Origin: a virus
DNA length: 64,000 bases
Reading direction: 5' to 3' (one strand)
IMG/VR virus record: IMGVR_UViG_3300017963_007659
Location: 32,001 to 96,000 of that record
Positions 30,711 through 63,228 of this stretch are shown here, piece after piece (within the stretch, counting starts at the first letter, position 1; each line of letters opens with the position of its first letter). A program made the position numbers and the translations under genes. Under the pieces are notes generated by a model. That model was not told the origin of the DNA, ran no database searches, and saw only the letters and a list, made by a program, of their open reading frames with translations.

Positions 30711-32075
30711 ATGGGTATTCTGGAGCAGATTCATAATCTTACAAATTCCGCGCTTCCTTCCTCACATGTAGGATATCACAAGTGGCGTGGAATTACTCTC
30801 CCAACCGACCTTTTCATGAGCGGAAGCGTGCGCTTCGCCCGAAAGACGGGGAATATTCTTCCTACCCTTCTTCCTTACAACTTCTCCAGGCTCTCGCAAG
30901 ATGTCAAACTGAATGACCAGATCATCTTCCTGGAGAGCTTTCCTACGCCAAGCATCACGCTGGGGACGAGGATTCGGATCAATCGACGGGAAGTCAAGAT
31001 TGTTGAAGACTTCAACGTAGATAACAACGAGCTTCTCCTCTCCACGGGCGTACAGGCAGCCTATCCCTCCTACACTCCTGTAGAGGTCTATGGGCAACCA
31101 ATTGAATCGGATGGAAGCTACATCGCGGGTCCTGGAGCGAATGTCATAAACGTCGACTCCACATGGAAGATTTATCCAGGGGATGTCCTCGTCTTCACGG
31201 CTGCTGAGATTGGGGTCACCGCAGCTACCCTCACAGCGTCCGTAGGAGGCGTCTATAGTTATCAGGTCACTCTTGAAGAGGACATCCCCTACGACCTCTC
31301 CGATCGCGCCCTCATCCTCCTGAGAGCCTACCCAGCGTATGAATCAGAGACACGGGTACTCCCCACTACCCCTGGCGTCTTCACCTCCTCTGGAGTAGGT
31401 CCCTTCGTTGTAGATTGGGTGTCTGGTCCGCTGCTCACCAGCGCTCGACCAGAAGAGTTCATGTACATCTATCTACAGACAGCAGCCGGAACCGTTATCC
31501 AAGAGAAGCTATTCGATAAGAATGACCTTATCCTCCGTGCTCCAATCAAAGCGGACTATCCTCTCTTCTGGAATGTAGAGAGAGGGAAGATCAATTGGGA
31601 TGGAACACGGCTGCACGCCACCACGGATGACCGAGGAAAGTTCCACCTCTTCAAGAAACTTGTCCCCAACTTCCCCACGGACCAAGTCAACCAGTGGAAC
31701 ATTCAGGTTGAGCCCGATAATGACGTCAACCTCTTCGTGGAGCTGGAGCCAAACACAAGGCAATCATACGCTCTTACAGGAGGAGTTGTCACCACAATCA
31801 ACATACTCTTGGATCCAACAGACCAACCGGTTGAGAGAGTACACCTACGTATAGACTCAGGATCGAATCCTGAGACGCGGGTGCGTCTAAATGACTGGAA
31901 CTTGGTAACTTCCCGTGTTGAGACCCTTCGGTACCATGTCGTCTCTCGCGTTACAGGGGACTACAACTACGCACTTTCTGGACTGTTCATTAAGCCGATG
32001 TTCCTATCGCTCGACCTTCTCCGAGCGCGATTGGACTTCGCAGGAGAGCTGGACTCTGGTCGTCTGGTTCTATAA
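30711..32075 (+). CDS. Virion structural protein (baseplate-wedge-like)
   Basis: 454 aa, beta-rich, in the structural cluster. Confidence 0.55.
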   Translation: MGILEQIHNLTNSALPSSHVGYHKWRGITLPTDLFMSGSVRFARKTGNILPTLLPYNFSRLSQDVKLNDQIIFLESFPTPSITLGTRIRINRREVKIVEDFNVDNNELLLSTGVQAAYPSYTPVEVYGQPIESDGSYIAGPGANVINVDSTWKIYPGDVLVFTAAEIGVTAATLTASVGGVYSYQVTLEEDIPYDLSDRALILLRAYPAYESETRVLPTTPGVFTSSGVGPFVVDWVSGPLLTSARPEEFMYIYLQTAAGTVIQEKLFDKNDLILRAPIKADYPLFWNVERGKINWDGTRLHATTDDRGKFHLFKKLVPNFPTDQVNQWNIQVEPDNDVNLFVELEPNTRQSYALTGGVVTTINILLDPTDQPVERVHLRIDSGSNPETRVRLNDWNLVTSRVETLRYHVVSRVTGDYNYALSGLFIKPMFLSLDLLRARLDFAGELDSGRLVL

Positions 32076-50534: not shown

Positions 50535-50544
50535 CTTTGACTAG
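50535..50544 (-). promoter_or_regulatory. Candidate middle-promoter motif CTAGTCAAAG
   Basis: Exact decamer with AAAAAT upstream, 6 nt before ATG 50528, no SD. Confidence 0.65.
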
Positions 50545-51425: not shown

Positions 51426-51806
51426 ATGGGTTGGAATGGTCTTCTTGGAAATAACGGTCGCGTCAATCCCTCGGATGAAGAGGTGAAGAGAAACCGCGCC
51501 GCGAAAGCCCGGAAAACGGCTGAGGCTGAAGAGCTGTTCTCTCAGCCCAGACCCGCTACAGATTGGGACCGTATGCTCCAAACGGCAGTGGAAGAAGCTC
51601 AAGTCGATAGCGACTGGCATGAGCCGAAACCTGATCCCACGGACGAAGAGATCGCGGCCCTTCTCGCTTGGTTTGGCTCCCGTGACGAAGGCATGTCCTA
51701 CTTGACGTCATTCCTCGCCGAACGCGGTTGGAATACTCTTGAAGACCTCTGGACGATGCGCGAAGCCCTTCTCATCGTTCAATATCAGTACCTCTCTGGG
51801 AACTAA
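51426..51806 (+). CDS. Early hypothetical protein
   Basis: GGAGG SD before ATG 51426. Confidence 0.7.
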   Translation: MGWNGLLGNNGRVNPSDEEVKRNRAAKARKTAEAEELFSQPRPATDWDRMLQTAVEEAQVDSDWHEPKPDPTDEEIAALLAWFGSRDEGMSYLTSFLAERGWNTLEDLWTMREALLIVQYQYLSGN

Positions 51807-52945
51807 CCAAAGAGCTTCACGTAGGGAAGAATCCCGCTCTCAATCCTCTCCTTCGCTATCTCAGCATACTCAGGGTTCAGTTCTACCCCAATGAAATGCC
51901 GGTCGTTCTTCACGCACACCAAACCAGTCGTTCCTGAGCCGCAGAAGGGGTCCAGGACGGTCGCTGGGACAGGAGTAGTCTCTTCGCACTCACAGGTTCT
52001 CCACGGAGCACCACAGGAGGAACAGACGCCTTCTGAGCTGGTTCCTGCCCGTATCATCGGAGTGATGAGGGCTTCCGGAAAAGTGGCGAAGTGGGAACCC
52101 TTGAAGGGCTGAGGATTGACATGAAACACGTTTGTTGGGTCCTGCTCCTTCAAGAAGTCACCCAGGATATCAGGGTGGTTTTCTGCCAACCACAGAGGAA
52201 GAGCAGTAGAATCCTCCACATGCCAAACGGATCGCCTGTTCCGCTTCTTGTACAGGGTCTCGCACTTCTCCTCGGAGCCAGGACCTCCCTTGCTAATCTG
52301 CTCCTGTCTCTTGAAGTTGTTCCCAGCTGCGTGGTCGGAGACGGCGTCTTCCTTGATCGCTTCGTGGTCGTAGAAGTAGTACCTACTCTTAGAGAACATG
52401 AAAACATTCTCGAAAGACCTTGTACAACGATCTCGAACCGGTTCAGGCATACAAGAACCTCCACGATAGTGAGGACCAGATATGCCTTTTGCCCATATAA
52501 GGTCTTGCCTGAGATAGTAGCCAGCATCCCGTAAGGCAAAAGCAACCTTCCAGGGTATACCTATCAAATCCTTCGGTTTGAGACCAAAGTCCGAGGCATC
52601 TACTTTGGCCCATCGTTTGACAGTCTTTTGTCCCTTCTCGTCACCTTTCCCTTTACGGCTTTCCCAATGCCCATGTCCCTTCGCTTGTGCATAGCTGTCA
52701 CCTAGAACAACAAACAAGGTCCCATCATTCCGGAGGACGCGATGAACTTCCTTGAAGACCTCTACAAGAGTCTGTACGAAAGCCTCTGGAGTGTCCTCCA
52801 GACCTATCTGTCCGTTAATATCGTAATCACGCAGATTCCAATACGGAGGACTCGTCACACAGCAGTGCACAGACTGGTCAGGGATCTCCCGTAGCTTCTC
52901 TTTGGCGTCCCCTACAAGAATCTCGTACCGACTTGTCATGGACAA
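51803..52945 (-). CDS. Orphan site-specific DNA methyltransferase (N4-C/N6-A, beta class)
   Basis: VTSPPYWNLRDY catalytic motif, HFATFP, and VLDPFCGSGTT SAM-binding motif. Confidence 0.92.
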   Translation of the reverse strand: MSMTSRYEILVGDAKEKLREIPDQSVHCCVTSPPYWNLRDYDINGQIGLEDTPEAFVQTLVEVFKEVHRVLRNDGTLFVVLGDSYAQAKGHGHWESRKGKGDEKGQKTVKRWAKVDASDFGLKPKDLIGIPWKVAFALRDAGYYLRQDLIWAKGISGPHYRGGSCMPEPVRDRCTRSFENVFMFSKSRYYFYDHEAIKEDAVSDHAAGNNFKRQEQISKGGPGSEEKCETLYKKRNRRSVWHVEDSTALPLWLAENHPDILGDFLKEQDPTNVFHVNPQPFKGSHFATFPEALITPMIRAGTSSEGVCSSCGAPWRTCECEETTPVPATVLDPFCGSGTTGLVCVKNDRHFIGVELNPEYAEIAKERIESGILPYVKLFG

Positions 52946-53267: not shown

Positions 53268-54194
53268 TCACACCAAGAACTGCCCACAGGCAGCCATGAC
53301 CTCGCTACCTGGAGATGTCTGCACCTTCACCCTCGGAAGCTCCTTCAAGAATAGCTCAGACACCTCATCGAACCGCTGTGATTCAGTGAATGGCGACCCT
53401 GAACACTGGTTGTAGCGGAGCAGCCGCAGCTCCAGGTCTGGACGTTCGGTAAAGAACCTCATGAGCTGCTCTATCTCCTCTGGAGAGTCGTTGATCCCCT
53501 CGAAGAGTAGCAGGTGACAGATGAGGGAGTTAGGCACCTTCCAGGAGCCTCTCAGGCGGTCCAGACGCTCTTGAAACCTGCTTCCATGCTTCCCCATGAG
53601 GAAGCACCTCGTCTCCTCGTTCAGAGACCCCAGAGAGATGAATAGGCGCACCAACGGGCGAGTCCTATCCTGCTCATTCTGGACTTCCGGAATCGTCTGG
53701 ACTTCCTTTACGAGCATGTCCAGGAGGTACTCTGGCATATTCTTGAAGTCGTAGTCAGGGAAGGAGGTGCCGACATCCACACAGTCCAGCCCTGTAGCCT
53801 TCTGGTGGTCTTTGAGGACACTCCGAAGAATCGAGGAAGTGACACAGCAGAGACTGCCTATCTCTGCCAGGGGCTCTCCCATCCCCATCCAAGCCAGCTT
53901 GACCTTCTTCTTCGTGATCGCCCGCCGATAGGTCGTCGCGTAGCTGATAGCATGCGAGAGGTTCTCTTCGATAGTCCACGGTTCGATCCGCTGGTACTTG
54001 CAGCCCTTCGTAGAGAGCATACAGAACTTGCAGTTCATCTTGCAACCGTAGGAGCAGGAGGCGAAGACGCTGTACTTCTCGCTGGCTTCGGATCCGAGAC
54101 CGGAACAGCCACCAACGTCTTTGATAGCCGTCTCTGAGAAGTCAGAGTGAATGAACTTGTAGACGGACCCGTCTTTAGTCGTCTTGACTTCCAT
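53268..54194 (-). CDS. rlmN: RlmN/Cfr-family radical-SAM methyltransferase-like protein (divergent)
   Basis: GCKMNCKFC (CxxxCxxC), MGMGEP, ISLG, GIND, RYN and AACGQ; AAGGAG SD before ATG 54194. Confidence 0.85.
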   Translation of the reverse strand: MEVKTTKDGSVYKFIHSDFSETAIKDVGGCSGLGSEASEKYSVFASCSYGCKMNCKFCMLSTKGCKYQRIEPWTIEENLSHAISYATTYRRAITKKKVKLAWMGMGEPLAEIGSLCCVTSSILRSVLKDHQKATGLDCVDVGTSFPDYDFKNMPEYLLDMLVKEVQTIPEVQNEQDRTRPLVRLFISLGSLNEETRCFLMGKHGSRFQERLDRLRGSWKVPNSLICHLLLFEGINDSPEEIEQLMRFFTERPDLELRLLRYNQCSGSPFTESQRFDEVSELFLKELPRVKVQTSPGSEVMAACGQFLV

Positions 54195-54459
54195 TCGTAT
54201 CTCCTTCTGGTGCGTCTGTCGTACATTTCTCACACAGAACAAGTCCCACCACATCTACGTGTTGGTCGATCAGCGTGCCACATCCAAAACACGCGCGGGT
54301 ATGAATGCTTGCTGCCTTCCACGAACAAGACCGGGGACGTTCTAGGGCTCTCTCCTGCTGTAGCTGTCCCAGAAGATACTCAGCATGCTCCTTCGGATTT
54401 CCTGGAGGAAGGTCATAGACAAGGATGTTCAAAAGCTCAAACAGCCGGTCTTCATCCAT
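54175..54459 (-). CDS. Small Zn-ribbon-like protein
   Basis: CFGCG...LCEKC. Confidence 0.6.
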   Translation of the reverse strand: MDEDRLFELLNILVYDLPPGNPKEHAEYLLGQLQQERALERPRSCSWKAASIHTRACFGCGTLIDQHVDVVGLVLCEKCTTDAPEGDTNGSQDD

Positions 54460-54963: not shown

Positions 54964-55047
54964 TCACAGGCATGAATCGAAGAGAATCGCTCCTACGACT
55001 AGCCCAACAAAGATGACCAGAACCCCGTACTTATCCCACCAAGGCAT
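54964..55047 (-). CDS. 27-aa single-TM peptide (MPWWDKYGVLVIFVGLVVGAILFDSCL)
   Basis: ATG overlaps the polymerase stop (TGATG) and fills the gap exactly; below the 60-aa cut-off of the ORF track. Confidence 0.55.
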   Translation of the reverse strand: MPWWDKYGVLVIFVGLVVGAILFDSCL

Positions 55048-57938
55048 CAGTTCCACACATGCCCTTCTTGCTTCGGCCAAGCCACCCCGTCCGTGACCTG
55101 CTGCTCCAGCCATCCCCAGATCTCCGTGAACTCTTTCTCAGTGCGGTCAAAGCTCTTGCAGTTGCCATACTTGAAGCCAATATCGAAGTCGACAGCCAAG
55201 GGCACGATCATCTCGATACCGAACATCTCCTTCAAGCATGAAGTATCCATGAAGATACGCTCAGCCGTTTCGATGTACTCACGGAGAGCATCAGCATCGT
55301 AGGGGATCTCCGCTATGATGGAGTCGTGAACCAGGTTGACGATCTTCCAATCCTTGCCCTTCGCTTCGATGTACTGCTGAAGTCGGATACCAGCTATGAG
55401 GTTATAATCCGAGCTGGCAGCCTGGATGGGGGAGTTGCGCGCTTGGCGATTCCCACGTCCCGCGTTGCCTTCAGCGTACTCATGAGCGAGATGGCGACGT
55501 CGACCCATGGGAGAGGTGACATACCCCTTCGTCTGAGCAGCCTTCTCAGCCATAAGCAACCAGGCGTGAACGTCGGGGAACTGTGCGAAGAAGGTGTCCA
55601 GAAGCTCCTGAGCCTTCTCAACCTCAACCCCAAGGTTCTTGGCGAGTGTCTTGACATGCTGCCCGAACATGATCCCGAAGACGATTCTCTTGGCGTCCTG
55701 TCGCTGGACAGACGTCACGTCTTCGATGGGAATCTGATGCATCAGTGCAGCGGTCTGTCTATGCACGTCGCACTCGAATTTGACTCGCTTCTTGTTCTCC
55801 TCTGTTGGATTCGCTATGTACTCAGCCTTGACCTTCTCCATGTTGCGGAAGACCTTGGCGTAGTTCTTATCTTGTGCGATCTGGACAGCCCATCTTACCT
55901 CAGATTGAGCTACGTCCATCTGGACTAGTAGACGCCCATGAGGGACGCAGTACATGTTCTTGACGGCTTTCCTAGCCGCGACTGTAGCAGCGAGACGTCC
56001 CTTCCCTGGAACCTGCTGGAGGTTCACCTGCTCCGAGCTTGTTCTCCCAGAGGTGACACGGCACGAGGTGAAGCTAGAACGCATTCTCCCGTCTGCACAC
56101 TCCCCATCAGGACCTTCCCCATGGATTCGAGCATTGACGCTCTTGGTGTAGCTGGTATCGAGCTTGTAGAGCCCTTTGTACTCGTAAACGAGGTCGACGA
56201 TGTGCTGGGTTGGAGTGACCTCCACGTCCTCTGGGAGGTCGTCGTCACTCTTGTTTCGCTCGAATAGCGCGGTGTTGATCTCTGGCTGCGGGATCTCCGC
56301 TCCTGTGATAGGGTCTATCTTCGGCTTGCTCCATCCCAGAGGCTCAATCTTGAGCACATCGATGAGCAGAGTGATGAGACATTCTTTCTTGTCTATGTCC
56401 AAGACCCAGGGACTACCAAAGAGACCTGCCATCCCCGCAGCCTTGGTCTTCCCAAGGTGGAGAGTATTGGCTTGCTGGACCTCTGGCAAAGAAAACAGCT
56501 CCTCCTTGATCTCTTTCATCCTCTGCTTGATCGGAGACAACTCCCCACAGAGCATACGGAGATGAGGGACGTCAATCTGGAAGCCGTTGCGTTCGATAGA
56601 CTCGAAAGCGCAGATGAGCGGTCCGTGCATGTGCACATTGAAATTCAGGACACGCTCTCTTCCTCCCTCTTCCTTATCAGCTACGTCAAGAAGCGCGCGT
56701 GCCAGCCGATGCGGCACATACCCATCCATCGCACAGTACTCTCGGAAACCGGTATCGAACAGGGAAATCTTATCGAAGTCCTGTCGCTTCTTCTTCATAC
56801 CGGAGTCCTCGAACTTCGTCCATCCGATATAGTCATTGGCTAGCTTCGCCAACGACATGGGCTTGTCACTCTTTGGAATTCGCTTGAGACGCTGCTCGTC
56901 CACGCAGTGCGCTAGGAACATCGTATCCAGCAGAGAGGCGTTCAGCGGCATACGTGCCGTTCCCAGGTCCGGATGGATACAGGTGCGCAGCATAGCCAGG
57001 TCGAACTTGAGGTAGTTCCCTGTGACCCACTGGAAGGCGTCTGTAGGCGTCGTCAGCAGCCGAATGACCTCAGCCTGTACCTGTGGCAGTTCTGTCGGAG
57101 ACCAAGGAGACTCAGGGTGCATGTACGGGATGAGTGTGGTGATCATCCCGTCATTGCAGAACTGAATCATGGACACTTCATTCTTGAAGCGATGAAGTCC
57201 CCCTCTTGTCTCCGTATCGAAGGCGAGAATCCCATCGATAGCAGGAGTCGTCAAGTAGCTATCGACTACCGTCTTGAGCTTCTCCAGCGTATCGACATAG
57301 AAGTAGTGACCGTCTTTGAGCCAATCGACACTCGGGTCTTCGTCTACGAGCTTCTTGGCTGTCTTCAGGACGTTAGTGTACTTCTGTGTCCAGGAAGCTT
57401 TGGCTGTGGGTTCGTGCTGACGAGCGATGAAGGAGGGGTGAACGTTGGCGAGATAGGTGACGCCATCCTTCTCGACGTAGCGACCTTGAGCACGGAGAAC
57501 TCCCGCTGAAGCTAGCTCCGGAGCGAGCGCCTTGATTGCCGTCCCTCCGAGCATCACGACAACCTTCGGCTTATGCCGCTGGATCTCTTCAAGAAGATAG
57601 GGAACGCAGTGTCTCACCTCATCGGGGTTGGGAGTCTGATTACGAAGGGGACGGCACTTACAGACGTTCGCCAGAGCGTAGTCTCCGAGAATACCGGCTT
57701 CCTGCATGCAAGCACGATGAATCTGACCAGAGACCCCGACTAGCGGTCTCCCCCTCGTGCCATCTGGATGCACATAGGCGTCCTCGTCGGCTCCGAGAGC
57801 TTCAGCGACGAAGAAGATGTCTGGTTGCCCTTCGATCTCGGTTGGGCTATACCAGACGATGTTTCCTGTGAACTGAGGGTGGAGTGAGCATCCAGGGCAA
57901 CACACCCGGTCCTGCTCTGCTCTATAGTCGAGACGCAT
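55047..57938 (-). CDS. polA: Family A DNA polymerase with an N-terminal family-4 UDG-like domain and a 3'-5' exonuclease domain
   Basis: UDG part: CPGC, AEALG..E, NVCKCRP, HC.PYL..EI...P..V..LG, HPS. Exo: AFDTET. Pol: GRTSS..NLQQ, DVAQSEVR (A), AKRIVFGIMFG (B), NSPIQ, VHDS (C). Confidence 0.93.
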   Translation of the reverse strand: MRLDYRAEQDRVCCPGCSLHPQFTGNIVWYSPTEIEGQPDIFFVAEALGADEDAYVHPDGTRGRPLVGVSGQIHRACMQEAGILGDYALANVCKCRPLRNQTPNPDEVRHCVPYLLEEIQRHKPKVVVMLGGTAIKALAPELASAGVLRAQGRYVEKDGVTYLANVHPSFIARQHEPTAKASWTQKYTNVLKTAKKLVDEDPSVDWLKDGHYFYVDTLEKLKTVVDSYLTTPAIDGILAFDTETRGGLHRFKNEVSMIQFCNDGMITTLIPYMHPESPWSPTELPQVQAEVIRLLTTPTDAFQWVTGNYLKFDLAMLRTCIHPDLGTARMPLNASLLDTMFLAHCVDEQRLKRIPKSDKPMSLAKLANDYIGWTKFEDSGMKKKRQDFDKISLFDTGFREYCAMDGYVPHRLARALLDVADKEEGGRERVLNFNVHMHGPLICAFESIERNGFQIDVPHLRMLCGELSPIKQRMKEIKEELFSLPEVQQANTLHLGKTKAAGMAGLFGSPWVLDIDKKECLITLLIDVLKIEPLGWSKPKIDPITGAEIPQPEINTALFERNKSDDDLPEDVEVTPTQHIVDLVYEYKGLYKLDTSYTKSVNARIHGEGPDGECADGRMRSSFTSCRVTSGRTSSEQVNLQQVPGKGRLAATVAARKAVKNMYCVPHGRLLVQMDVAQSEVRWAVQIAQDKNYAKVFRNMEKVKAEYIANPTEENKKRVKFECDVHRQTAALMHQIPIEDVTSVQRQDAKRIVFGIMFGQHVKTLAKNLGVEVEKAQELLDTFFAQFPDVHAWLLMAEKAAQTKGYVTSPMGRRRHLAHEYAEGNAGRGNRQARNSPIQAASSDYNLIAGIRLQQYIEAKGKDWKIVNLVHDSIIAEIPYDADALREYIETAERIFMDTSCLKEMFGIEMIVPLAVDFDIGFKYGNCKSFDRTEKEFTEIWGWLEQQVTDGVAWPKQEGHVWN

Positions 57939-57978: not shown

Positions 57979-57988
57979 CTTTGACTGG
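57979..57988 (-). promoter_or_regulatory. Candidate middle-promoter motif CCAGTCAAAG upstream of the DNA polymerase
   Basis: Intergenic, 40 nt upstream of ATG 57938; same variant as at 5823. Confidence 0.55.
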
Positions 57989-58061: not shown

Positions 58062-58832
58062 TCACTCGGTCACCTTTCCGTGGGCGAAAAGCTGAGGCAT
58101 TCGTTGGGATGATTCCAAGCGCTTTTTCCCGAGAGCGAACACTTCAGGGTCTTTCTCACAGACCCAAAAGCTACGCCCCAAGCTGCGCGCGGCTACCGCT
58201 GTGGTGAACGATCCAGCGAATGGGTCAACAACGAGGTCTCCGGGGTTGGAGTGCGCCTGTAAGATGATCTCATAGAGTTGTGTCGGCTTCTGAGCCGAGA
58301 CGATCTTCTGATGCATGACCTCGGTCACGTCCGTCCACACATTGGAGCGTCTCTTGAAGGTGCTGTGTGGTTTGTACTTCTTGTTCTTGAGCACGTTCTG
58401 CGTCATCTCGGAATGCTGTTCAGTCAGGTAGGGCTTGTTGAAAATCGCAGGCTTCTCCCCGCGCACCAACCAGAGCATCTCCTCTCGGGTGAAGAGGTAG
58501 CGGTCAGCCACTCCGTAGCCGCGACTCTTCTTCCAAGTGATGAAGTCGCGGAGACGCCACTCCTTGAACTCATCCTCGACAGTAGCCGCGAACTTCAAGA
58601 ATGCCCTGTTCTTGTGTGATCCAATCCCGCCCCACATGAGGACCGAACCTCCCTCCAGGACGAAGTTCTGGCACCCTTCCACGAAGTCGTAGAGGAATGT
58701 CAGGAGCTGCTTCTCATCCAGGTTGTCATAGTCATCAGAGACAACTTGCCCATAGGGTGGGTCAGCGATGACGAGGAGCGTCTCAGGAGGGGCCTGCTCG
58801 AAGAAGTCTCCACAGATAGTGGTCTCTGCCAT
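58062..58832 (-). CDS. Orphan DNA amino-methyltransferase (DPPY, beta class, probably N6-A)
   Basis: IADPPYG, QKP, VVDPFAGSFTT. Confidence 0.9.
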   Translation of the reverse strand: MAETTICGDFFEQAPPETLLVIADPPYGQVVSDDYDNLDEKQLLTFLYDFVEGCQNFVLEGGSVLMWGGIGSHKNRAFLKFAATVEDEFKEWRLRDFITWKKSRGYGVADRYLFTREEMLWLVRGEKPAIFNKPYLTEQHSEMTQNVLKNKKYKPHSTFKRRSNVWTDVTEVMHQKIVSAQKPTQLYEIILQAHSNPGDLVVDPFAGSFTTAVAARSLGRSFWVCEKDPEVFALGKKRLESSQRMPQLFAHGKVTE

Positions 58833-59453: not shown

Positions 59454-59463
59454 CTTTGACTAG
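59454..59463 (-). promoter_or_regulatory. Candidate middle-promoter motif CTAGTCAAAG
   Basis: Exact decamer 6 nt before ATG 59447; shares 19 identical bp with 62801-62819. Confidence 0.65.
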
Positions 59464-60299
59464 ATTTTGAGCGCTATCCGCTTGACGTCTTCCGTCACGT
59501 CCATGTTCTTGTGAGCACAGACATCCGGCTTCGTCAGCCTCTCAACGATGAGGTCAGCGTAGTCCTGCTCAATCTCAGCCCCAATCCAACGACGACCGTA
59601 GGACTCACAGACAACGGCTGTCGTCCCGGAACCCATGAAGGGGTCCACCACCAAGTCTTCAAGATTGGTAGACATTGCTACCACGCGGTCCAGGATCTTC
59701 GTCGAGAGCACATTGGCTCTCCTCTCCATCTGCTTGAACTTCTTGTGTCGCACAGGAGAGATGTCCGTCCACACGTCTTTGAGAGATAGACCATCCGGAT
59801 GAAGCTTGCTCTTGTGCCCACCGTAGTCCTTGACGGTCTCTCCGCACTTGCGACAGACAGGGATGGGTGTGCGGATCTTCTTGAAGGTCTTGGGAGGTCC
59901 CTTGGTGTAGTAGAGCAGGCTGTAGTGGGCCGGATAGAGCCTACCCTTGATAGGCATAACCGTTGTCATCTCGATAGCAATCCAATGCCTGAAGGTTAGC
60001 CTCTTCTTCGAGAGGTAGGCTCCAAGAGGCACATTCCACTTTGGGAGGTTGTAGAGGAAGAAGGACCCTCCAGGCTTCAAGATTCGTACACACTCCTTGA
60101 TCCACTGATGACACCACGTCAGGTACTCCTCCTCTGGAAGAGCGTCGTTCGTCTGCGGTCCGTAGCTCTTTCCAATGTTGAAGGGAGGGTCGGCGAAGAC
60201 AGTATCGACGGAGAAGTCATCGATGGTCGCAAGGACGTCTAGGCAGTCTCCGTGATAGAGCTTACCAAAGGGAGTGGTGTGGTAGGGGTACATGGTCAT
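59460..60299 (-). CDS. Orphan DNA methyltransferase, M.BamHI-like (DPPF; probably N4-cytosine)
   Basis: FADPPFN, YNLPKWN, RLYPAHYSLLYY.KG, C..CG...KDYGG, DVW.DI.PVRH and DPFMGSGTT; strong resemblance, from memory, to M.BamHI. Confidence 0.88.
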   Translation of the reverse strand: MTMYPYHTTPFGKLYHGDCLDVLATIDDFSVDTVFADPPFNIGKSYGPQTNDALPEEEYLTWCHQWIKECVRILKPGGSFFLYNLPKWNVPLGAYLSKKRLTFRHWIAIEMTTVMPIKGRLYPAHYSLLYYTKGPPKTFKKIRTPIPVCRKCGETVKDYGGHKSKLHPDGLSLKDVWTDISPVRHKKFKQMERRANVLSTKILDRVVAMSTNLEDLVVDPFMGSGTTAVVCESYGRRWIGAEIEQDYADLIVERLTKPDVCAHKNMDVTEDVKRIALKI

Positions 60300-62803: not shown

Positions 62804-63228
62804 ACCCTACTTTGACTAGGTTTCTCCGCAGACTGGACAAGAAAGGGCCTCACTTTTAGGCGCTTCCAGATGGTTGGGAATCTTTCCTCAACAAGTTCAA
62901 GCATTTGCTCGAAGGTGCACTCCTGTGCGATGAAGAAGTTCGAGTTGCTGTTGGGACGGTGGTCTCCAGACGTATCCCAGAAGGCAAGACAGGTCCAGAT
63001 AGTGTCACCGCTATTCTTGTAGTGGAGGGCTGCGGCTCCTTCTTTGTATCTGTGGCATTGGTCTGGAGCAAAATTCGCGTCGATATTGTCGAAGGGACCT
63101 ATCCGATTGAACGGAAGAGGGCGCTGATGCTTACACTGACTGACACCAACCTCTTGGTAGTGAGTGCAGTGTCCAGCTTTGTTGTCAGGCCACACACCGA
63201 AGAAGTAGACATCCAGGTCAGTCTTCAT
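62800..63228 (-). CDS. Hypothetical phage protein
   Basis: Start MKTDL at 63228; YFFGVW...AGH...LAFWD.S.D.RP.SNS.F is a recurring family motif. Confidence 0.7.
   Translation of the reverse strand: MKTDLDVYFFGVWPDNKAGHCTHYQEVGVSQCKHQRPLPFNRIGPFDNIDANFAPDQCHRYKEGAAALHYKNSGDTIWTCLAFWDTSGDHRPNSNSNFFIAQECTFEQMLELVEERFPTIWKRLKVRPFLVQSAEKPSQSRV
62810..62819 (-). promoter_or_regulatory. Candidate middle-promoter motif CTAGTCAAAG
   Basis: Exact decamer 6 nt before ATG 62803, embedded in the last codons of the upstream gene. Confidence 0.6.

Follow-up and report, generated by a model that had tools for sequence, protein, structure and literature searches.

The locus and its product

Within a 64,000-nucleotide stretch of viral DNA, comprising positions 32,001 to 96,000 of IMG/VR record IMGVR_UViG_3300017963_007659 and referred to below as the window, the minus strand encodes a 308-residue protein (P0001) related to the radical S-adenosylmethionine (SAM) enzymes RlmN and Cfr. 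The gene, its motifs and the other features considered here are collected in Table 1. The open reading frame (ORF) runs from 53268 to 54254 and offers in-frame ATG codons at 54254 and 54194, the latter of which is the real start, since GAAGGAG is located 6 nt upstream and the N-termini of all relatives begin there. An earlier, sequence-only reading of this DNA had listed a cluster motif, MGMGEP, ET, SL, YN and the cysteine of AACGQ, and each was found in the translation where that reading had placed it: ET at residues 21-22, the cluster motif CKMNCKFC with Cys51, Cys55 and Cys58, MGMGEP at 103-108, SL at 187-188, YN at 261-262 and AACGQF at 301-306, accompanied by DGSVYKF (8-14), SVFASCSYGC (42-51) and QTSPG (292-296). 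When P0001 was aligned to RlmN of E. coli and to Cfr of the S. aureus type, Cys303 fell on Cys355 and Cys338, respectively, and residue 1 at approximately RlmN residue 85. Class A radical-SAM methylases are defined by two conserved cysteines (PMC9692996); P0001 has both the [4Fe-4S] and the SAM motif, together with the carrier cysteine in the C-terminal loop, and lacks the second cysteine.

Table 1. Positions in the window of the radical-SAM gene, its motifs and codons of interest, and neighbouring features
Feature	Coordinates	Strand	Basis
RlmN/Cfr-like radical-SAM gene, 308-residue product (P0001)	53268..54194, including stop codon	-	ORF list, translation, NCBIfam, fold match
Shine-Dalgarno-like GAAGGAG, 6 nt 5' of ATG 54194	54201..54207	-	Read from sequence
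CX3CX2C (Cys51, Cys55, Cys58)	54021..54044	-	Invariant in 72/72 close and 173-174/175 wider relatives
Phe44 codon, RlmN Cys118 / Cfr Cys105 position	54063..54065	-	Alignment
Cys47 codon, aligned with RlmN Ser121	54054..54056	-	Alignment
MGMGEP, SAM-binding (GGE-type) motif	53871..53888	-	M103 and G106 invariant; W102, G104 and M105 at least 90%
Family-specific insertion, approximately residues 147-181, between beta4 and the FxSL strand	53652..53756	-	Alignment
Cys264 codon, RYNQC loop after beta6, aligned with RlmN Phe314	53403..53405	-	Alignment
AACGQF loop, Cys303 = RlmN methyl-carrier Cys355	53277..53294	-	Cys in 72/72 close and 173/175 wider relatives
Uracil-DNA glycosylase (UDG)-like domain fused to family A DNA polymerase, upstream gene	55047..57938	-	Pfam UDG 2.3e-19, DNA_pol_A 6.5e-57; PHROG 17
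N6/N4 DNA methyltransferase, downstream gene	51803..52945	-	Pfam N6_N4_Mtase 2.5e-40
Two further N6/N4 DNA methylases	58062-58832, 59460-60299	-	
Decamer CCAGTCAAAG, just 5' of the polymerase gene	57979..57988	-	Motif search
Decamer YYAGTCAAAG, exact copies upstream of genes	57979-57988, 59454-59463, 62810-62819, 50535-50544; five further sites on the plus strand	- (four sites), + (five sites)	

Family assignment and predicted fold

The relationship of P0001 to characterised families was examined with profile and structure searches. The best NCBIfam model was that of RlmN (TIGR00048; 57.1 bits, E 1.4e-15), the score falling short of the curated cut-off of 290 bits, while the Cfr models NF000424 and TIGR04432 gave 42.6 and 38.3 bits against cut-offs of 530 and 550. 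Pfam returned a sub-threshold Radical_SAM match of 20.6 bits, and PHROG 27142 (Fe-S-cluster redox domain-containing), which carries no tested function, was matched weakly (E 1.2e-08), with residues 39-307 aligning to positions 40-299 of the 300-position profile. When solved structures were searched by sequence, RlmN chains in the PDB were the sole relatives (E about 1e-6).

An AlphaFold2 model of P0001, built on 71 relatives, has a predicted local distance difference test (pLDDT) score of 90.7 and a predicted template modelling score of 0.91, and shows the partial TIM barrel with beta-sheet extension of the RlmN-type fold. Values of pLDDT below 50 are confined to residues 301-304 around Cys303, as would be expected if this segment corresponds to the mobile carrier loop of RlmN. 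Residues 1-306 of the model superpose on residues 82-358 of E. coli RlmN (PDB 5HR7) with a Z score of 26.0 and a root-mean-square deviation of 2.5 Å over 261 aligned residues; the match to Cfr has a Z score of 17.8, and the next radical-SAM enzymes, pyruvate formate-lyase activase and viperin, a score of 15.8. The resemblance of P0001 to RlmN is far beyond chance. Since the fold match begins at RlmN residue 82, P0001 is a core of RlmN type that lacks the initial ∼80 residues making up the HhH2 domain; indeed, no Pfam hit to this domain (PF21016) was obtained in P0001, and none in the flanking ORFs. Motifs, profile scores and predicted fold therefore bear out the initial description of a phage RlmN/Cfr-like radical-SAM enzyme, and the absence of an N-terminal domain, which had also been proposed, is confirmed by an alignment and a fold match that both begin at RlmN residue ∼82-85.

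A distinct and mostly viral family

A word-indexed search retrieved approximately 70 proteins of 300-380 residues, with E values from 1e-103 to 1e-31 and many of them encoded on contigs of 90-680 kb, after which E values jumped to 1e-12 for cellular RlmN, which carries PF21016. When 1.84 billion cluster representatives were searched with a profile, 139 were retrieved at E <1e-30, corresponding to some 140 clusters at 50% identity, and the ESM Atlas clusters closest in their features were 75-89% viral. Almost without exception, the 175 members keep Cys51, Cys55, Cys58 and Cys303, even where identity is as low as ∼30%. The alignments also revealed residues that are invariant in the family only, namely His16, Lys63, Arg183, Phe185, His227, Arg260, Lys290, Gln292 and Phe306, as well as the beta4 insertion of roughly 35 residues, which is absent from RlmN and Cfr and is modelled as helices at 154-166 and 169-172.

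The initial reading had left room for the protein to group within ordinary cellular RlmN. However, in a 59-row maximum-likelihood tree (quick search, LG+G4), comprising 34 family rows and 19 cellular RlmN/Cfr rows, the family and the cellular enzymes each form one side of a branch with a Shimodaira-Hasegawa-like approximate likelihood ratio of 99 (SH-aLRT). Truncated forms that keep the Cys118 equivalent (P0254, P0257, P0264 and P0226) lie between the two, as do Psa21-type phage proteins, which have tyrosine at the Cys118 position. His227 is already present in the truncated intermediates, and Asp137, Asp140, the beta4 insertion and Phe44 arise together with the core family. On the evidence of alignment and tree, then, the family is a one-piece clade with phenylalanine at the position of the lost Cys118.

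Among cultured phages, Klebsiella phage 05F01 was the sole carrier found of a family member, whereas Psa21, D6 and 201phi2-1 carry the more distant truncated type. A megablast search with 20 kb revealed no close phage relatives. Similarly, among the papers searched for a phage RlmN-like enzyme family, or for C-methyladenine in phage DNA, none was relevant; Kaminska et al. (2010) mention only that viral sequences are included in the enzyme family. With regard to fused long forms, a search for longer proteins revealed none and gave a single weak cellular hit, which is weak evidence for stand-alone status, and the extensions present in P0190, P0192 and P0205 contain no Pfam domain. Separately, structure hits in the ESM Atlas included bacterial RlmN-like cores fused to a dCMP/cytidine deaminase domain (Bacillota, ∼491 residues) or to a NUDIX domain (Myxococcota, ∼475 residues), which suggests a coupling to nucleotide chemistry in some enzymes of the RlmN-like kind.

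Loss of Cys118 and the candidate replacements

The resolving cysteine of RlmN, Cys118, was expected from the initial reading to be missing, and this proved to be so throughout the close relatives: the position, Phe44 in P0001, is phenylalanine in 69 of 72 and cysteine in none, as opposed to cysteine in 50 of 51 cellular RlmN/Cfr sequences. In the wider set of 175 rows the residues are phenylalanine (139), valine (16), isoleucine (5), tyrosine (3) and cysteine (4), the four cysteine rows being truncated intermediates that do not belong to the core family. On the 59-row tree, two changes are needed for the Cys118 equivalent to be lost, and truncated phage lines have therefore lost it at least twice, once in the phenylalanine family and once in the lineage of Psa21, which has tyrosine.

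The same reading had suggested that the cysteine three residues beyond the phenylalanine, Cys47, might be a relocated resolving cysteine. This part of it did not hold up. Cys47 is present in 10 of the 72 close relatives and in 22-23 of 165-175 wider ones (13-14%), with five changes on the tree, and is confined to the small clade to which P0001 itself belongs (P0001-P0006 and P0010) and to that of Klebsiella phage 05F01. It aligns with Ser121 of RlmN and, as judged from strand periodicity, the strand in the model spanning residues 40-46, would lie beside rather than in register with the inward-facing 118, 120 and 122 positions. Cys264 is a better candidate: it is found in 70 of the 72 close relatives, and a cysteine occurs in the same loop in 128 of 165 wider members (78%), with eight changes on the tree; a cysteine at the 264 position is also found in 29% of cellular hits. 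A third site, Cys101, is occupied by cysteine in ∼43% of members (five changes), including most of those without the loop cysteine, and aligns with Cfr Ser153, which contacts the target ribose in a cryogenic electron microscopy (cryo-EM) structure of Cfr (preprint 10.64898/2026.02.27.707579). The loop cysteine, Cys47 and Cys101 are all missing from six of the 165 members, and one member (P0159) has just five cysteines in total. No second cysteine is fixed in the family, because the candidate sites are labile on the tree and some members lack all three.

Substrate-facing residues

In order to compare the surfaces that face the substrate, the RNA contacts of Cfr, as described for a modelled rRNA complex (PMC12887959) and for a crosslinked complex examined by cryo-EM (preprint 10.64898/2026.02.27.707579), were mapped onto the family alignment. 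The position of RlmN Arg206 is Asp137 in all 72 close relatives, a reversal of charge, while Arg207 is replaced by glycine or cysteine, Arg274 by asparagine, threonine or serine, and Arg347 by proline or alanine. With QTSPG at residues 292-296, the basic patch ahead of AACGQ is gone, in agreement with what had been noted from the sequence. The invariant Asp140 is the counterpart of Cfr Ser187, by which the next nucleotide is bound at its phosphate (PMC12887959; preprint 10.64898/2026.02.27.707579), and the RNA contacts made by Cfr's N-terminal domain are absent from the family. Conversely, Lys40 (RlmN Arg114), Lys99 (Asn172), Arg257 (Asn307; Cfr Asn288) and Ser42 (Cfr Ser103) are positions kept or made basic, all of which surround the ribose-phosphate of the target nucleotide itself, and both Ser42 and Glu21, as residues of the target-nucleotide pocket, are retained. 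The reaction chamber would thus seem to be conserved and the outer docking surface to have been rebuilt, which would argue for a substrate other than the L-shaped RNA gripped by RlmN and Cfr. Overall charge was considered too as a sign of lost RNA binding, but was rejected: the median isoelectric point is 6.3 in the family core versus 8.9 for the cellular hits, but that of E. coli RlmN is 6.6.

Comparison with known enzymes

P0001 shares with RlmN (E. coli b2517; TIGR00048; PDB 3RFA and 5HR7) the radical-SAM core with beta-sheet extension, CX3CX2C, MGMGEP, the conserved glutamate (RlmN Glu105, here Glu21) and the AACGQ carrier loop. It differs in having ∼22% identity, neither the HhH2 domain nor a C-terminal tail, phenylalanine for Cys118, lost or acidic residues in place of Arg206, Arg207, Arg274 and Arg347, and the beta4 insertion. 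The same class A chemistry motifs are present in Cfr, the 23S A2503 C8-methylase (TIGR04432/NF000424; PDB 9P0P), and the family has serine or cysteine at the Cfr Ser153 position and serine at that of Ser103; the equivalent of Cfr Cys105 and the N-terminal domain are absent, however, and Trp101, Lys250 and Arg184/185 of Cfr are not conserved. The phiKZ-type truncated forms (Psa21 gp398 and 201phi2-1 B3FJU2; PHROG 27142) are likewise phage-encoded, without an N-terminal domain, and have the carrier cysteine, histidine at position 227 and phenylalanine after CGx, and Psa21 also lacks the Cys118 equivalent. Their identity to P0001 is nevertheless ∼23%, they lack the beta4 insertion and they occupy a separate branch of the tree. 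The Psa21 gp398 gene (L010:3893-4774), unlike that in the window, has as neighbours an RtcB-type tRNA ligase gene and two genes for tRNA-Leu, which hints at a tRNA role in that lineage. Finally, gene_104 of Klebsiella phage 05F01, annotated 'radical SAM protein' (LC483177), is 30% identical to P0001 over its full length, with valine at position 44, Cys47 and SSCGMF; it lacks Cys264 and adjoins anaerobic ribonucleotide reductase genes as opposed to a polymerase gene.

Genomic context

The record from which the window is taken is a 186,314-bp virus sequence, classed in IMG/VR as a provirus and ∼50% complete, the DNA of which occurs in two metagenome studies (sediment and seawater) from which it may derive; no RNA run was listed as containing it. 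The 186,314-bp record yielded no tRNA or tmRNA gene, which argues against a phage tRNA as the target here, and no TGT/DpdA match, as would mark the 7-deazaguanine route. The polymerase encoded upstream of the radical-SAM gene is a 963-residue fusion in which the UDG-like domain, of family-4 type, occupies residues 36-181, and is ∼27% identical to its nearest counterparts in cultured phages (Erwinia and Dickeya jumbo phages). Around the polymerase gene, a span of 8.5 kb contains three separate N6/N4-type methyltransferase genes, and no endonuclease was recognised among the ORFs scanned. A 94-residue ORF (54175-54459, minus strand) with two CxxC pairs, reminiscent of a zinc ribbon, shares 20 nt with the beginning of the radical-SAM gene; neither Pfam nor PHROG gave a match to it, and it was not found beside relatives of that gene.

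Beyond the decamer that precedes the polymerase gene, the next minus-strand copy is at 50535-50544. The polymerase, radical-SAM and methylase genes may form one transcription unit, because copies of the decamer are present on this strand at 57979 and 50535. Eight or so exact copies are present in the 64 kb; when one mismatch was allowed, the count of 23 was not above the 16.9 obtained in shuffled sequence. Scans for sigma-70 promoters and terminators around the gene gave results at or below chance.

The neighbourhoods of other family members are mixed. A DNA polymerase gene is present within 2 kb in four of nine loci with gene calls, the others having nothing recognisable nearby or else anaerobic or aerobic ribonucleotide reductase, dUTPase, MazG, NT5C, or a queuosine-salvage gene together with a second radical-SAM gene. 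Among 102 neighbours in 17 further viral loci, a Pfam tally gave five DNA methylases, two UDG, two RNA ligases and three YqeY proteins, together with NrdD, DnaE, Thg1, and NAD and purine enzymes. Of eight loci examined, two had tRNA genes within 7 kb of a family member. None of the genes that adjoin the window gene recurred in five related loci, and the family enzyme appears, from these arrangements, to work alone. Two related contigs have features of their own: in that of a 200-kb phage (L014:912-3419), six tRNA genes and a tmRNA-like gene are located 3.5-6 kb upstream of the family member, and in that of a hydrothermal-vent phage (L012:1-2753), the family A polymerase gene upstream of the family member is split by intein and LAGLIDADG domains.

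Discussion

The gene described here encodes an intact protein that stands alone and represents a phage-type offshoot of the RlmN/Cfr enzymes, the class A radical-SAM methylases. In the characterised enzymes, SAM methylates the loop cysteine and a 5'-deoxyadenosyl radical then generates an S-methylene radical, which adds to C2 or C8 of adenine, whereupon the second cysteine takes the ring proton and the C-S bond fragments; when the second cysteine is missing, as in C118A/S RlmN or C105A/S Cfr, the enzyme stays crosslinked to RNA (PMC9692996; preprint 10.64898/2026.02.27.707579). The parts required for carrier methylation, radical formation and addition are all conserved in the viral family, in which the proton-removing cysteine is replaced by phenylalanine. 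The reading favoured here, to which a probability of roughly 0.5 is given, is that the enzyme is a catalytic C-methylase acting on a new target, with its adduct resolved by a base other than Cys118. According to this scheme, a first SAM would methylate Cys303, as in RlmN, and cleavage of a second would give the 5'-deoxyadenosyl radical by which the S-methyl group becomes a methylene radical. This would add to a purine nucleotide at an sp2 carbon, with Lys40, Lys99, Arg257 and Ser42 holding the nucleotide, and the adduct would be resolved without Cys118, the family-invariant His227, Asp140, His16 or Glu21 being candidate bases, perhaps with the help in some members of a labile nearby thiol (the Cys264 loop or Cys101). 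The target would not be 23S A2503 or tRNA A37 bound in the manner of RlmN; instead, a nucleotide or a different site in nucleic acid would be modified while the infection is in its replication phase.

Several considerations weigh against a catalytic methylase of this kind. Turnover without Cys118 is an assumption, given that in RlmN and Cfr its loss leaves a covalent RNA adduct (PMC9692996). The lost basic residues were taken in part from a modelled Cfr-rRNA complex, and E. coli RlmN is itself not basic overall, so that the argument from charge is weak. The mixed gene neighbours, moreover, identify no target and do not settle the choice between RNA, DNA and nucleotide. A more specific version, in which the enzyme does not act on RNA but adds a carbon-linked methyl group to a purine, either of phage DNA or of a deoxynucleotide precursor, is considered unlikely; it supposes that the enzyme is expressed along with the DNA polymerase of the phage and the three DNA methylases. 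If true, it would amount to an undescribed, radical-made DNA modification, and the new substrate would explain why the RNA-docking elements and Cys118 were lost.

An alternative is that a relocated second thiol does the work of Cys118, namely Cys264 in P0001 and Cys101 or Cys47 in other members. The prevalence of the N262-loop cysteine in both the close and the wider set is consistent with such a role, as is the presence of Cys101, at the ribose contact of Cfr, in most members without it, and six of 165 members are left without any of the three. However, there is no fixed position, with eight, five and five changes on the tree for the loop cysteine, Cys47 and Cys101, respectively; P0159 has few cysteines from which to choose; the 29% of cellular RlmN hits with a cysteine at 264 keep Cys118 nonetheless; and the post hoc choice among several sites inflates the apparent coverage. 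A relocated thiol in this general sense is possible, if rather unlikely. That Cys47 specifically is the relocated cysteine is highly improbable: it recurs in the P0001-P0006 and P0010 clade and again in that of Klebsiella phage 05F01, but its occurrence in 10 of 72 and 22 of 165 members, its five changes on the tree and its probable position outside the inward-facing register all argue otherwise.

It could also be envisaged that the protein is a programmed crosslinker, which stops at the Cys303-CH2-nucleotide adduct and so inactivates or marks host or phage nucleic acid stoichiometrically. The crosslinked state of C118A/S RlmN and C105A/S Cfr (PMC9692996; preprint 10.64898/2026.02.27.707579) provides a precedent, a bulky phenylalanine at the Cys118 position would shield the adduct, and the cysteine has been lost repeatedly in phage RlmN-like lines. 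Set against this, a single-turnover protein is costly, the new invariant polar pocket residues His227, Asp140 and His16 suggest catalysis, and no conserved nearby partner for removing or using the adduct was seen, such that crosslinking as the end point is distinctly unlikely. Little more than a slight chance is given to an ordinary RlmN/Cfr substitute that methylates host 23S A2503 or tRNA A37. Relatives are automatically annotated as RlmN, and the pocket residues Ser42 and Glu21 are kept, but profile scores are far below the family cut-offs, the family forms a separate clade, and the tRNA- and rRNA-anchoring N-terminal domain, the four arginines at 206, 207, 274 and 347, and Cys118 are all absent. 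Lastly, the want of a residue essential in the characterised enzymes might be taken to indicate a decaying or non-catalytic remnant, which is scarcely credible for an intact, full-length frame with a strong ribosome-binding site, a confident structure model, and cluster, SAM and carrier-cysteine motifs that are invariant across some 170 diverged members.

RlmN and Cfr are the textbook example of methylation via a protein-bound methylene radical, a reaction for which the second cysteine is considered indispensable. That cysteine has been dropped in an entire viral family, and in at least one further phage lineage, while the rest has remained under strict conservation, which points to one of three things: another resolution of the covalent intermediate, deliberate crosslinking or a new substrate. 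The existence of a cultured member, in Klebsiella phage 05F01, makes the question directly testable. Any of the three would widen the chemistry known for class A radical-SAM methylases and reveal a new route of nucleic-acid modification in large phages.

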